Assembly (NCBI RefSeq): GCF_053078305.1
Contig: NZ_CP166879.1
Strand: one strand, 5' to 3'
Length of the DNA: 64,000 nt
Of this stretch, positions 48,225 to 52,268 are shown one piece after another; position 1 is the first letter of the stretch; each line of letters begins with the position of its first letter. The position numbers were made by a program, and so were the translations under genes. The notes under the pieces are model-generated. The model was not told where the DNA came from and did no database searches. It saw only the letters and a list, made by a program, of their open reading frames with translations.

Positions 48225-48959
48225 ATGCCCAAACTCGATCTAAACGCCCTGAACGAACTGCCGAAGGTAGATCGCATTCTGGCGCTGGCAGAAACTAACG
48301 CCCAACTGGAAAAACTGGACGCTGAAGGCCGCGTAGCCTGGGCGCTGGATAATCTGCCCGGTGAATATGTGCTTTCTTCCAGCTTCGGCATTCAGGCGGC
48401 GGTGAGCCTGCATCTGGTGAATCAGATTCGCCCGGATATTCCAGTGATCCTCACCGATACCGGTTACTTGTTCCCGGAAACCTACCGCTTTATTGACGAG
48501 TTAACGGACAAACTCAAGCTCAACCTGAAAGTGTACCGTGCTACCGAAAGCGCAGCCTGGCAGGAAGCACGCTACGGAAAACTGTGGGAACAGGGCGTTG
48601 AAGGCATTGAAAAGTACAATGACATCAACAAAGTCGAACCGATGAACCGGGCGCTGAAAGAACTTAACGCGCAAACGTGGTTTGCTGGCCTGCGCCGCGA
48701 ACAATCCGGCAGCCGCGCCAATTTACCGGTGCTGGCAATTCAGCGTGGCGTATTTAAAGTGCTGCCGATTATCGACTGGGATAACCGAACTATTTATCAG
48801 TACCTGCAAAAACATGGCCTTAAATATCACCCATTATGGGATGAAGGATATTTATCGGTTGGTGATACCCATACAACCCGTAAATGGGAACCCGGCATGG
48901 CTGAAGAAGAAACGCGTTTCTTTGGCTTAAAAAGGGAATGTGGGTTACACGAAGGGTAA
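48225..48959 (+). CDS. cysH: Phosphoadenosine phosphosulfate reductase
   Basis: ATG at 48225 after GAGGA RBS gives 244 aa; upstream in-frame extension of the ORF-track call runs through the REP element and is not credible. Confidence 0.92.
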
Positions 48960-49223
48960 ATATTGCCGGATAAATTAAACGCCTCTGTCAGAAATGATGG
49001 GGGCGTTTTTATTTTGCGAGCAGCATTCCTGATTTTAAACGTGAACGCCGCTGGAAGAATTAACAGGTATAGAATGGTGTTGGGTGCTTGAGGCTGTCTG
49101 GCGTTAAGCATTCGCGAGGTTCCAGATGGACAAAAGCCCCAGGCGATATTTCTATCAACCTGAGGCCAGCGTTCGAACCTAAGCAATTCGAATGTTAGTC
49201 TCTTCTTTGCAGGGAGGCAAGAC

Positions 49224-49376
49224 ATGCTGACAAAATATGCCCTTGTGGCAATCATCGTACTGTGTTGTACAGTACTGGGATTCACGCTGATGGTAGGCGA
49301 CTCGTTGTGTGAGTTGAGTATCAGAGAACGTGGTATGGAGTTTAAGGCTGTTCTCGCTTACGAATCGAAGAAGTAG
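49224..49376 (+). CDS. hokX: Hok/Gef-family type I toxin (probable hokX)
   Basis: 50-codon ORF, not in the ORF track because under 60 aa; hydrophobic N-terminal TM segment plus conserved Hok C-terminal pattern (LCEL..R...EF.A.LAYESK); followed by a hairpin. Confidence 0.65.
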
Positions 49377-49568
49377 CCACCACGCGGGGGTAAAACCCCG
49401 CGTATTGAATTGTGATGGTTTGGTCTCCTGCACCCTTTTTTAAATTTATATTTTTTATGTGAATATATTGTCTCTATTTATTATTATGAATTTCAAATGA
49501 AAATCATAAATTTATTCACAATATAAATGTTTTATTGGCTGATATATATCACAGATAATTTTTAAAAT

Positions 49569-52268
49569 ATGCGTAAATATCCTTTAAGTTTACTGAAGGA
49601 TAAAAATATTGTGACTTTCTTTGATTTCTGGGGAAAAACCCGACGCGACGAGAAAGAAGGGGGTGACGACTATCACCTTCTTTGCTGGCATTCGCTGGAT
49701 GTGGCCGCGATGGGCTATTTAATGGTTAAAAGAAATTGCTTCGGGCTGGCTGATTATTTTCGTCAATTAGGGATTTCTGACAAGGAACAGGCGGCTCAAT
49801 TTTTCGCCTGGTTGTTGTGCTGGCACGATATTGGAAAATTTGCCCGCTCATTTCAGCAACTTTACCTGCACCCACAACTCAAGGTTCTGGAAGGCGCAAG
49901 AAAGAATTACGAAAAGATCTCTCATTCAACGCTGGGCTACTGGTTGTGGCATCATTATTTAAGTGAATGCGAAGAATTGCTTCCTGCCTCTTCACTCTCT
50001 ACTCGCAAACTTAAACGTGTAATAGCGATGTGGATGCCCATGACTACCGGGCATCATGGTCGGCCCCCTGACCGTATTGATGAACTGGATAATTTTCTGC
50101 CTGAAGACAAAGCTGCCGCACGAGATTTTCTCCTTGAAATCAAGTCACTGTTTCCGCTCATAGAGATTCCCACATTCTGGGATGATGACGAGGGCGTTGA
50201 ACTTTTAAAACAACTTTCCTGGTATATCTCTGCAACAGTCGTACTCGCAGACTGGACGGGTTCGTCAACGCGATTTTTTCCACGCGTCGCACAGACAATG
50301 AATATTAAAGATTACTGGCAGAAAACTTTAGTTCAGGCTCAAAACGCCTTAACCGTCTTTCCTCCAAAAGCAGAAACCGCACCTTTCACCGGAATTAATA
50401 CGCTGTTTCCTTTTATTGAGCACCCGACACCATTACAGCAAAAGGTACTGGATCTGGATATCAGCCAGCCAGGGCCACAGTTATTTATTCTGGAAGATGT
50501 GACTGGCGCAGGTAAAACAGAAGCGGCGCTTATCCTGGCGCACAGGTTGATGGCTGAGAATAAAGCTCAGGGTTTGTTTTTTGGCCTGCCAACAATGGCA
50601 ACGGCCAATGCCATGTACGATCGGCTGGTCAAAACCTGGCTTGCTTTCTTTTCGCCAGAATCCCGCCCCAGCCTGGTGCTGGCACACAGCGCCCGTACAT
50701 TAATGGAACGCTTTAATGAATCACTCTGGTCCGGTGATTTAGTCGGGTCAGAAGAACCGGATGAACAAGCGTTCAGTCAAGGATGTGCAGCCTGGTTTGC
50801 CGACAGTAACAAGAAGGCTTTACTGGCTGAAATTGGCGTCGGCACGCTGGATCAGGCGATGATGGCAGTGATGCCGTTTAAACATAATAATCTGCGGCTT
50901 CTGGGGTTGAGTAACAAAATCCTGCTGGCTGATGAGATCCACGCCTGTGACGCTTACATGTCGTACATTCTTGAAGGGTTGATTGAGCGACAGGTGCGTG
51001 GCGGAAACAGCGTCATTTTGCTTTCTGCTACGTTATCTCAACAGCAGCGCGACAAACTTGTCGCCGCCTTTGCGCGTGGCACAGAGGGCCAGCAAGAAGC
51101 TCCGTTCCTGGAAAAGGATGATTACCCCTGGCTGACGCATGTCACGAAATCCGATGTGCATTCGCACCGGGTAGCGACGCGCAAAGACGTTGAGCGTAGC
51201 GTGAGCGTGGGTTGGCTTCATAGCGAACAAGAATGTATTGCGCGTATCGAATCAGCGGTAAGTCAGGGGAAATGCATCGCCTGGATCCGGAATTCTGTCG
51301 ATGACGCTATTAAGGTTTATCGTCAGTTACTTGCCCGCGGCGTCATTCCTGCTTCCAGCCTTTCACTTTTTCATAGCCGCTTTGCTTTTAGCGATCGCCA
51401 GCGAATTGAAACGGAAACGCTGGCACGCTTTGGTAAAAATTGTAGTTTAAAAAGATCATCTCAAGTCATTGTTTGTACACAAGTAATTGAGCAAAGTGTG
51501 GATATTGACCTGGACGAAATGATCTCCGACCTGGCCCCCATTGATTTGCTGATCCAGCGAGCGGGGCGATTACAACGGCATATTCGTGATATTAATGGTC
51601 AGTTAAAACGTGATGGAAAAGACGAGCGTTCCCCTCCTGAATTGCTGATTCTGGCCCCCGTCTGGGACGACTCTCCGGGTGACGAATGGTTTGGTAGTGC
51701 GATGCGTAACAGCGCATATGTCTACCCCGATCATGGGCGAATCTGGCTGACGCAGCGAGTATTGCGTGAGCAAGGCGCTATTCAGATGCCACACGCAGCC
51801 CGGCTTCTTATTGAATCCGTCTACGGTGAGGACGTGGTAATGCCGGAAGGATTTGCCCGCAGCGAGCAGGAGCAAGTGGGCAAATATTACTGCGATCGCG
51901 CAATGGCTAAAAAGTTTATGCTGAACTTCAGGCCCGGCTATGCCGCCAATATCAACGATTACCTCCCGGAAAAGCTGTCGACACGTCTGGCTGAAGAGTC
52001 TGTTTCCCTGTGGCTGGCTACCTGTATTGACGGTGTGGTGAAGCCTTATGCCAGCGGTGCTCACGCATGGGAAATGAGCGTTGCCAGAGTGCGTCGAAGC
52101 TGGTGGAAAAAACATCGGGATGAATTTTCTTTACTGGAAGGGGAAGCGTTCAGGCAGTGGTGCATTGAACAACGGCAAGATCCGGAGATGGCAAACGTGA
52201 TTTTAGTCACCGATGACGAAAGCTGCGGGTATTCGGCTACGGAAGGATTGATTGGCAAGGTTGATTGA
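49569..52268 (+). CDS. cas3: Cas3 HD nuclease / helicase (type I-E)
   Basis: 899 aa; HD motifs (HSLDVAA, HDIGK), Walker A (GAGKTEAA), DEAH-like box (LADEIHACD); preceded by AT-rich promoter region. Confidence 0.92.
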   Translation: MRKYPLSLLKDKNIVTFFDFWGKTRRDEKEGGDDYHLLCWHSLDVAAMGYLMVKRNCFGLADYFRQLGISDKEQAAQFFAWLLCWHDIGKFARSFQQLYLHPQLKVLEGARKNYEKISHSTLGYWLWHHYLSECEELLPASSLSTRKLKRVIAMWMPMTTGHHGRPPDRIDELDNFLPEDKAAARDFLLEIKSLFPLIEIPTFWDDDEGVELLKQLSWYISATVVLADWTGSSTRFFPRVAQTMNIKDYWQKTLVQAQNALTVFPPKAETAPFTGINTLFPFIEHPTPLQQKVLDLDISQPGPQLFILEDVTGAGKTEAALILAHRLMAENKAQGLFFGLPTMATANAMYDRLVKTWLAFFSPESRPSLVLAHSARTLMERFNESLWSGDLVGSEEPDEQAFSQGCAAWFADSNKKALLAEIGVGTLDQAMMAVMPFKHNNLRLLGLSNKILLADEIHACDAYMSYILEGLIERQVRGGNSVILLSATLSQQQRDKLVAAFARGTEGQQEAPFLEKDDYPWLTHVTKSDVHSHRVATRKDVERSVSVGWLHSEQECIARIESAVSQGKCIAWIRNSVDDAIKVYRQLLARGVIPASSLSLFHSRFAFSDRQRIETETLARFGKNCSLKRSSQVIVCTQVIEQSVDIDLDEMISDLAPIDLLIQRAGRLQRHIRDINGQLKRDGKDERSPPELLILAPVWDDSPGDEWFGSAMRNSAYVYPDHGRIWLTQRVLREQGAIQMPHAARLLIESVYGEDVVMPEGFARSEQEQVGKYYCDRAMAKKFMLNFRPGYAANINDYLPEKLSTRLAEESVSLWLATCIDGVVKPYASGAHAWEMSVARVRRSWWKKHRDEFSLLEGEAFRQWCIEQRQDPEMANVILVTDDESCGYSATEGLIGKVD

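Follow-up and report, generated by a model that had tools for sequence, protein, structure and literature searches.

The cysH–cas3 interval of an Escherichia coli genome most likely carries an intact hokX/sokX type I toxin–antitoxin locus

The HokX toxin gene and its setting

The window, a stretch of 64,000 nucleotides from an Escherichia coli genome (contig NZ_CP166879.1), contains a gap of 609 nucleotides between the end of cysH at position 48959 and the start of cas3 at position 49569, which we analyzed within positions 48700–49900. This intergenic region is 100% identical to that of E. coli strain PapM-32-1, where it is also flanked by cysH and cas3. The terminator hairpin of cysH occupies positions 48977–49008, and two sub-threshold Rfam matches at 48917–49017, to ctRNA_p42d and Spot_42, proved to be merely this hairpin. 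Downstream lie a small toxin gene, its structured leader and 3′ elements on the + strand and a probable antisense RNA gene with its promoter on the – strand (Table 1).

The original prediction had placed a Hok/Gef-family toxin frame directly upstream of cas3, and both the placement and the family hold. The 50-codon frame is present with exactly the translation first quoted, and hokX precedes cas3 by 128–192 nt, both genes being read from one strand. Alignment to the Pfam HOK_GEF model (PF01848) matched the full model, with positions 1–42 of 42 corresponding to residues 5–46 of the protein (E = 6.3e-10). The protein shares 39 of its 50 residues (78%) with K-12 HokE, and the RefSeq product, a “Hok/Gef family protein” (WP_000956458.1, in PapM-32-1), is common to O157 and many other strains. 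Pfam, HokE similarity and the RefSeq name thus agree on a Hok/Gef toxin: the protein is small (~50 aa), has its transmembrane helix near the N terminus and is conserved toward the C terminus. The scores against the NCBIfam models NF007290 (HokA equivalog; 53 bits, cut-off 89) and NF007279 (Hok family toxin subfamily; 39.5 bits, cut-off 73) fall below their cut-offs, indicating that the protein is not HokA and is outside that curated subfamily model. On sequence grounds it belongs in the HokE/HokX branch. The gene had also been described as hidden, a description that does not stand: among the matches listed, RefSeq annotates the frame in all genomes carrying it.

The coding sequence is conserved both within and beyond E. 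coli. Its variable sites among nine E. coli alleles comprise eight synonymous changes and one non-synonymous change (C15F); the other allele comparisons reported here draw on ten E. coli alleles. The 50-codon frame is kept in all 45 loci, from ~30 Enterobacteriaceae species, that were collected by means of a codon pattern for EFKAVLAYE.

Table 1 Features of the hokX/sokX locus (positions in the window)
Feature	Position	Strand	Basis
Probable hokX promoter, –10 box TAGAAT, 6 nt before the predicted mRNA start	49070–49075	+	Conservation
Predicted hokX mRNA in full length; begins with GGGUGC, ends in the U-run past the fold-back element	49082–49441	+	Rfam start, homology end, fold
Structured hok leader, match to RF01794 “sok”	49082–49239	+	111.7 bits
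tac-like 5′ element, GGGUGC UU GAGGCU	49082–49095	+	Full-length fold
Non-conserved upstream ORF; ATG with GAGG at 49116–49119, TAA at 49180	49126–49182	+	Allele comparison
SokX antisense RNA, probable; 5′ end ~49184, 3′ end ~49126	49126–49184	–	Projected from K-12 sokX (b4701, 2887353–2887411)
Conserved 12-codon leader ORF, ending in a TGA that overlaps the start of hok (ATGCTGA); best candidate mok-equivalent	49192–49230	+	
Probable SokX promoter: –35 TTGCCT (complement of 49215–49220), 17-nt spacer, –10 TAACAT (complement of 49192–49197)	49192–49220	–	Sequence, conservation
hok Shine–Dalgarno GGGAGG, 6 nt before ATG	49212–49217	+	Sequence
hokX coding sequence, 50-aa Hok/Gef toxin	49224–49376	+	Pfam, HokE identity, RefSeq, conservation
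G+C-rich hairpin after the stop codon, intact; IS186/IS421 insertion site in other strains	49383–49402	+	Fold
fbi-like element GGUCUCCUGCACCC in the 3′ UTR, complementary to the 5′ end of the mRNA	49422–49435	+	MFE and ensemble pairing
T-run directly after fbi, where the full-length transcript may end	49436–49441	+	Sequence

The original prediction had further seen in the locus a probable counterpart of hokX/sokX of K-12. The correspondence with hokX/sokX is supported by Pfam, by an Rfam leader match (RF01794), by the identity to HokE and by the literature; the attribution to K-12 is not, as K-12 has the leader and sokX (b4701) and no hok frame. The locus is already named, annotated and catalogued, and nothing about it is new as such. 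The name hokX was given in E. coli B, and in the adherent-invasive strain NRG857c (AIEC) the gene sits between cysH and iap (PMC7232551). In a survey of 237 urological isolates “hok/sokX” stood beside cysH in 90%, the rest being K-12-like with sokX only (PMC12736100), and toxin–antitoxin inventories include both hokX and sokX (PMC11598369). We sought the original source of the name; the papers found credit E. coli B without a reference. Beyond correct annotation, the significance of the window allele is thus small, as it is an uninterrupted copy of a common and already named locus.

Leader, promoters and antisense RNA

The original prediction of a structured leader is borne out by a match to the Rfam model RF01794, which is aligned in full (model positions 1–157 over 158 nt) and scores 111.7 bits (gathering score 59; E = 3.3e-26). 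The model is named “sok”, and reading the match as a Sok RNA on the + strand was considered and ruled out by running the model on K-12 hokC, hokE and sokX. There, RF01794 matches the strand of hokC, of hokE and of the hokX leader, opposite the annotated sokC, sokE and sokX. For annotators, the Rfam “sok” model accordingly marks the hok mRNA leader and not the Sok strand.

A hexamer of the form TAnnAT stands at a fixed distance of 6 nt before GGGTGC in 42 of the 42 loci with enough upstream sequence, and in the ten E. coli alleles this hokX –10 box is invariant. The sequence upstream of it is unrelated among the 42 loci and holds no conserved –35. Conservation of TAnnAT within otherwise unrelated sequence fits a weak, –35-less promoter with a start at about 49082, and it is there that we infer hokX transcription to begin. 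A consensus scan for promoters and terminators listed neither the hok promoter, whose box is without a –35, nor the Sok promoter; conservation and the K-12 annotation served to place the two. At the hok Shine–Dalgarno, GGAGGCAA is invariant in 42 loci. Among the E. coli alleles the leader varies only at 49167–49183 and at 49191. This variable patch lies in or beside the segment complementary to the 5′ region of SokX.

A search of the – strand for a sok-like promoter and antisense RNA had been suggested as a check on the toxin gene, and it returned conserved promoter hexamers together with the projected K-12 sokX. The corresponding 59-mer is predicted to form a long hairpin, preceded by a 5′ tail with little pairing and followed by a terminal UUUUGU (–22.7 kcal/mol, z –3.6). 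The probable promoter has 8 of 12 consensus matches, and since the scan cut-off was 9 it was left unlisted. Both hexamers are invariant in the ten E. coli alleles; across species the –35 is invariant while the –10 reads TAACAT, TACCAT or TACTAT, and 7 nt separate it from the annotated 5′ end of K-12 SokX. The –35 overlaps the hok ribosome-binding site (GGGAGG). K-12 homology, the fold and the conserved hexamers, all features of the sequence, thus point to a cis-antisense Sok RNA of ~60 nt with its own promoter. RNA-seq reads over sok_15/sokX have been reported in strain EDL933 (PMC5331693).

The leader contains two short frames, the first of which had been put forward as a possible mok remnant. 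This upstream frame exists as described (18 codons plus TAA), and the ORF list gives it only inside a longer TTG-initiated frame at 49088–49198; it is not a conserved mok. The TAA at 49180 is CAA in other alleles. In the BL21, EC21Z-048 and K-12 alleles the frame from ATG 49126 runs to the TGA at 49228–49230, and in O157 and S7 a 1-nt deletion leads it to a TAG stop. The frame is confined to Escherichia and Pseudocitrobacter loci, where its length ranges from 6 to 83 codons; with the ATG missing outside these genera and so variable a length, the frame at 49126–49182, considered as a truncated mok, was rejected as the conserved element. The ATG itself is mostly paired in the predicted folds, with a probability of being unpaired of 0.09 in the full-length mRNA and of 0.10 and 0.56 in two truncated mRNAs.

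The second frame, at 49192–49230, is the more plausible counterpart of mok. In 35 of the 45 loci, an ATG at this position opens a frame that crosses the hok ribosome-binding site: in 24 of them, including the window, the ATG is at –32 and the stop at +7 relative to hok, and in 11 further loci the ATG is at –33 or –36 and in frame with hok. Eight loci of the Klebsiella/Enterobacter type are without an ATG at this position. The 12-codon frame has no obvious Shine–Dalgarno, and its ATG is 8 nt outside the annotated SokX-complementary stretch. The Sok –10 overlaps this ATG, so that conservation of the ATG could be explained by the promoter and does not count as independent evidence. The canonical mok of R1 and hokC (mokC), with ~70 codons and a start just 3′ of GAGGC, 57 nt before hok, is absent; hokX and hokE are without a start codon there, and the 12-codon frame of hokX instead begins 32 nt before hok. 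In plasmid R1, translation of mok is required only as far as the hok translation-initiation region (PMC9841398), a need that the frame at 49192–49230 would meet. Annotators may regard a 12-codon frame ending on the hok start as the best candidate for a mok-equivalent in the HokE/HokX branch.

Fold-back pairing and a proposed mechanism

The hairpin that the original prediction placed after the hok stop is there, in the form CGCGGGG-GTAAAA-CCCCGCG. Further downstream, homology between loci with differing downstream contexts (cas3 or iap) stops at ~49443, which sets the end of the predicted mRNA. The fold predicted for 49082–49440 closes the 5′ end onto the 3′ end (MFE –130.6 kcal/mol, z –3.9), with 49082–49087 pairing with 49435–49430 and 49090–49095 with 49427–49422 at a probability of being unpaired of ~0. 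The duplex between the two ends has an energy of –21.8 kcal/mol against –15.5 ± 2.7 kcal/mol for shuffled 3′ UTRs, 19 of 1000 shuffles being as good.

This pairing recurs in related loci. In 40 of 42 loci from ~30 species, the best duplex that the 3′ UTR forms with the first 20 nt of the mRNA ends 57–65 nt past the stop codon, and 41 of the 42 have a GCACC-type motif at that distance. Duplex energies over the 42 loci range from –19 to –26 kcal/mol. Over 28 distinct 5′/3′ combinations, 82.7% of cells are paired as against 33–49% in slid registers, in a register anchored on the GCACC motif and so favoring pairs 1–6; both-sided (compensatory) changes occur in only three tac/fbi pairs. The intact hokE mRNA, the 3′ UTR of which differs in sequence, is also predicted to close 5′ to 3′ (z –6.2). 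From these models we interpret the 5′–3′ pairing as the tac/fbi fold-back known from plasmid R1 (PMC9841398).

Removal of fbi leads, in the predicted folds, to local re-pairing of the 5′ end. The target loop at 49176–49186 rises in its probability of being unpaired from 0.28 to 0.81 in one truncation and does not in another. Folds of the 3′-truncated mRNAs did not reproduce the Rfam tac/ucb hairpin, and the accessibility of the hok ribosome-binding site was unchanged in them. The support that thermodynamic folding gives to an activation switch is thus partial and inconsistent.

The arrangement of these elements suggests a mechanism of the following kind. The weak promoter without a –35 would give rise to a stable mRNA of ~360 nt, from 49082 to ~49441, and pairing of tac (49082–49095) with fbi (49422–49435) would keep this hokX mRNA compact and untranslated. 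Slow trimming from the 3′ end would then strip off fbi and allow the 5′ end to refold locally, whereby the refolded leader would become a target of SokX (~49184 to 49126), transcribed from a promoter that overlaps the hok ribosome-binding site. As long as SokX is present, the resulting duplex would be destroyed and no toxin made. Once SokX is exhausted, the 12-codon frame at 49192–49230 would be translated through the hok ribosome-binding site, leading to synthesis of the 50-aa Hok, which would insert in the inner membrane and collapse the membrane potential. For plasmid R1 hok/sok, membrane depolarization, an unstable antitoxin RNA opposed to a stable toxin mRNA and cleavage of the duplex by RNase III are known (PMC9841398). 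What the analysis shows at hokX is the sequence with its homology, its conservation and its predicted pairings; it is by homology that we infer toxicity, RNA ends, processing, SokX instability and translational coupling.

We conclude, with a probability of about 0.88, that the locus is an intact chromosomal E. coli hokX/sokX type I toxin–antitoxin system, a close paralogue of hokE/sokE, and most likely R1 hok/sok-like. With R1 hok/sok and with hokC/mokC/sokC (gef) it has in common the Hok/Gef toxin, the RF01794 leader, the predicted tac/fbi fold-back, the G+C-rich hairpin after the stop and a cis-antisense Sok promoter overlapping the toxin translation signals (PMC9841398). Unlike R1 hok/sok, it is chromosomal and without a role in plasmid maintenance.

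Its closest paralogue, hokE/sokE, has a leader that is alignable throughout, a toxin of the same 50 aa, a hairpin after the stop and the same 5′–3′ closure, and the 5′ end annotated for Sok is placed alike in both, 8 nt ahead of the leader ATG. By contrast, hokE lies at another chromosomal site (ybdK–entD) and has 4 extra nt before its start, placing its leader frame in frame with hok, whereas that of hokX stops at +7. The 3′ UTR of hokE has also diverged, and its fbi, GGCACC, pairs with a 5′ GGUGCC. Since the region of the Sok 5′ tail differs between hokE and hokX, cross-regulation of the two loci is unlikely.

Strain variation and the relation to cas3

Most E. coli carry the hokX frame: of 5426 complete E. 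coli genomes, 4220 have it with an identity of at least 90% and 1206 are without it. In 2239 genomes the match extends over at least 80% of the intergenic query, in which hokX is followed by cas3 as in the window. In some strains hokX is instead followed directly by a convergent iap, without cas genes. Beyond E. coli, cysH and hokX are also neighbors in E. whittamii and other Escherichia species, in Pseudocitrobacter and in two further genera; for E. albertii, the sequence compared covers only the cas3/casA side of the locus.

Two kinds of damage to the locus were found in other strains. K-12 MG1655 shares the site beside cysH, and its sequence is near-identical to that of the window from cysH to the hok ATG (49226), where the alignment breaks. 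This break indicates that K-12 has lost the hok frame, the hairpin and the 3′ element, and only the ncRNA gene sokX (b4701) is annotated there, transcribed in the opposite direction to cysH and cas3. In the window, hokX is followed by the non-K-12 variant of cas3. Three strains, 005008, MFDS1001074 and BL21, lose homology to the window within the hairpin, at 49398/49399, and continue with ATAAGCGCTAACTTAAGGGTTG, an IS186-type junction, such that fbi is lost. Downstream of it, 005008 and MFDS1001074 have an annotated IS4-like transposase of the IS421 family, and BL21 has none. The same type of junction is found in K-12 hokC and hokE and in E. albertii hokX, and annotators should therefore treat the 3′ hairpin as a recurrent IS186 insertion site at which insertion removes the fold-back element. 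The window copy is uninterrupted, with no IS in the hairpin, no deletion of the hok frame and fbi in place.

Such losses raise the question of whether the window copy is a silent relic, that is, a recognizable toxin gene that is no longer expressible, like the inactivated hok loci of K-12. The chromosomal hok loci of K-12 have been reported as non-functional, in a passage of PMC7232551 that cites Pedersen and Gerdes (1999), and the function of hokX is thus not to be taken for granted. Further points in the same direction are the absence of a canonical mok, the TAA at 49180 that cuts the longer upstream frame, and the number of lineages in which hokX has been lost or interrupted through absence of the frame, IS186 or the K-12 deletion. 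However, none of the known inactivating lesions is present in the window, and that TAA falls in a frame that is not conserved in any case. Moreover, all regulatory elements are invariant across the E. coli alleles, the variation in the coding sequence is 8:1 in favor of synonymous sites, and both the 50-aa frame and the tac/fbi complementarity have been kept over ~30 species. We therefore consider a silent relic unlikely. The intact allele would be well suited for testing the activity of chromosomal hok loci.

Turning to cas3, its adjacency to hokX is real and, judged by the gene orders compared, not obligate, the two being separable in both directions. Conservation of the hok module extends as far as the T-run (~49443) and stops ahead of the A+T-rich region upstream of cas3, and the consensus scan found no terminator-like site on the + strand between hok and cas3. 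At least four T residues directly follow fbi in about half of the related loci. R1 has a separate terminator hairpin downstream of fbi; in hokX, by comparison, the T-run follows fbi directly. As this U-run comes straight after the tac/fbi helix and no local terminator hairpin is present, the long-range helix might itself terminate transcription, with transcripts that fail to close reading on into cas3. We regard this as distinctly improbable; if true, it would link folding of the toxin mRNA to cas3 expression in strains so arranged.

A broader tie to the adjacent type I-E CRISPR-Cas system, in which hokX/sokX would serve as an addiction module or as back-up abortive infection, or in which hokX transcription would read into cas3, is very improbable. 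It draws on the short same-strand distance to cas3, on the missing terminator-like site and on the occurrence of the order cysH–hokX–cas3 in E. coli, E. albertii, another Escherichia species and Pseudocitrobacter. R1 hok/sok, in addition, has been reported to exclude phage T4. Against such a tie, hokX stands beside iap without cas genes in many strains, as also described in PMC7232551, K-12 keeps cas3 without hok, and paralogues of the same architecture are found at unrelated sites, e.g. ybdK–entD. Homology between the different contexts stops right after fbi and the T-run, which marks the hok module as self-contained, and the PADLOC anti-phage models gave no family matching the Hok peptide at E values up to 0.1.

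Finally, 49224–49376 might be taken for an open frame that arose by chance in structured non-coding sequence and encodes no protein. This notion could appeal to the length of only 50 codons and to the longer spurious – strand frames that overlap the frame, but is refuted for practical purposes by the comparisons of sequence described above, namely the Pfam match over the full model, the 78% identity with HokE, the bias of substitutions toward synonymous sites and the constant 50-codon length in 45 loci.

Leader strand and polymorphism

The Rfam model RF01794 ("sok antitoxin") matches the hokX leader on the strand of the hok mRNA, that is, in the sense orientation. In the K-12 loci compared, the annotated sokC, sokE and sokX genes all lie on the strand opposite to their RF01794 matches. 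Pipelines that call such matches the antitoxin gene place it on the wrong strand and assign it a length of ~157 nt instead of ~60 nt.

Among 10 E. coli alleles, the leader is invariant except for a single polymorphic patch, which occurs in at least four haplotypes, with a 1-nt indel among the differences. This patch is located within and adjoining the stretch complementary to the 5´ region of SokX, the antisense RNA of the locus. In the paradigm hok/sok system of plasmid R1, target recognition is set by the part corresponding to the Sok 5´ region.

In RefSeq, a 270-nt ORF labelled "hypothetical protein" lies antisense to the leader and CDS of hokE, the closest paralogue, and comparable minus-strand ORFs run across hokX. 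All of these are probably false gene calls in a locus of structured RNA.

Coordinates of features at hokX and in comparison loci (L-numbers) from other genomes
Feature	Position	Strand
RF01794 match	window 49082-49239	+
Polymorphic leader patch	window 49167-49183 and 49191	
ORFs antisense to hokX	window 49179-49433 and 48827-49285	-
RefSeq ORF antisense to hokE	L013 47-316, L014 551-820	-
ctRNA_p42d and Spot_42 matches	window 48917-49017	
cysH intrinsic terminator	window 48977-49008	
GGGG(N5-6)CCCC hairpin, just 3´ of hok stop	window 49383-49402	
TTTTTT	window 49436-49441	
Porin/prophage sequence, BL21(RP)	L012 2154-4153	
Paired HokE/HokX-type copies	L013 285-437 and 788-940; further pairs in L031, L033, L041, L042	same strand

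The cysH terminator and the T-run 3´ of hokX

Upstream, two sub-threshold Rfam matches, ctRNA_p42d at 24.9 bits and Spot_42 at 19.7 bits, overlie the cysH intrinsic terminator; both were rejected, as they seemingly arise from the terminator hairpin alone. On the cas3 side, the T-run immediately follows the fold-back (fbi) element, and no terminator-like site was found on the + strand between that element and cas3 (49442-49568). A T-run right after the fbi element is present in about half of 44 related loci, whereas hokE-type and some Klebsiella loci have a separate hairpin farther downstream.

IS186/IS421 insertion at the 3´ hairpin

In the hokX, hokC and hokE loci compared, IS186/IS421 has inserted repeatedly in the hairpin that follows the hok stop codon. 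Three E. coli strains and E. albertii have the identical junction CCC/ATAAGCGCTAACTTAAGGGTTG in hokX, and K-12 hokC and hokE share it. Each insertion at the hairpin severs the fold-back element from the mRNA. In BL21(RP), the interrupted hokX hairpin is followed by a truncated porin gene and DLP12-type prophage genes (quuD, ylcG, rusA, ybcO) in place of cas3 or iap. This arrangement suggests an IS-mediated rearrangement.

Copies and fragments in other genomes

E. coli RM10042, E. whittamii, Enterobacter sp. JUb54 and Klebsiella spallanzanii carry HokE/HokX-type copies on the same strand, spaced by ~500 nt; another K. spallanzanii contig carries a pair 1.2 kb apart. A low-coverage, 2.3-kb Marinobacter sp. 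B9-2 contig (L022), from a non-enterobacterial assembly, encodes only the C-terminal 16 residues of a HokE-like peptide joined to unrelated sequence, probably reflecting contamination or a chimeric contig.
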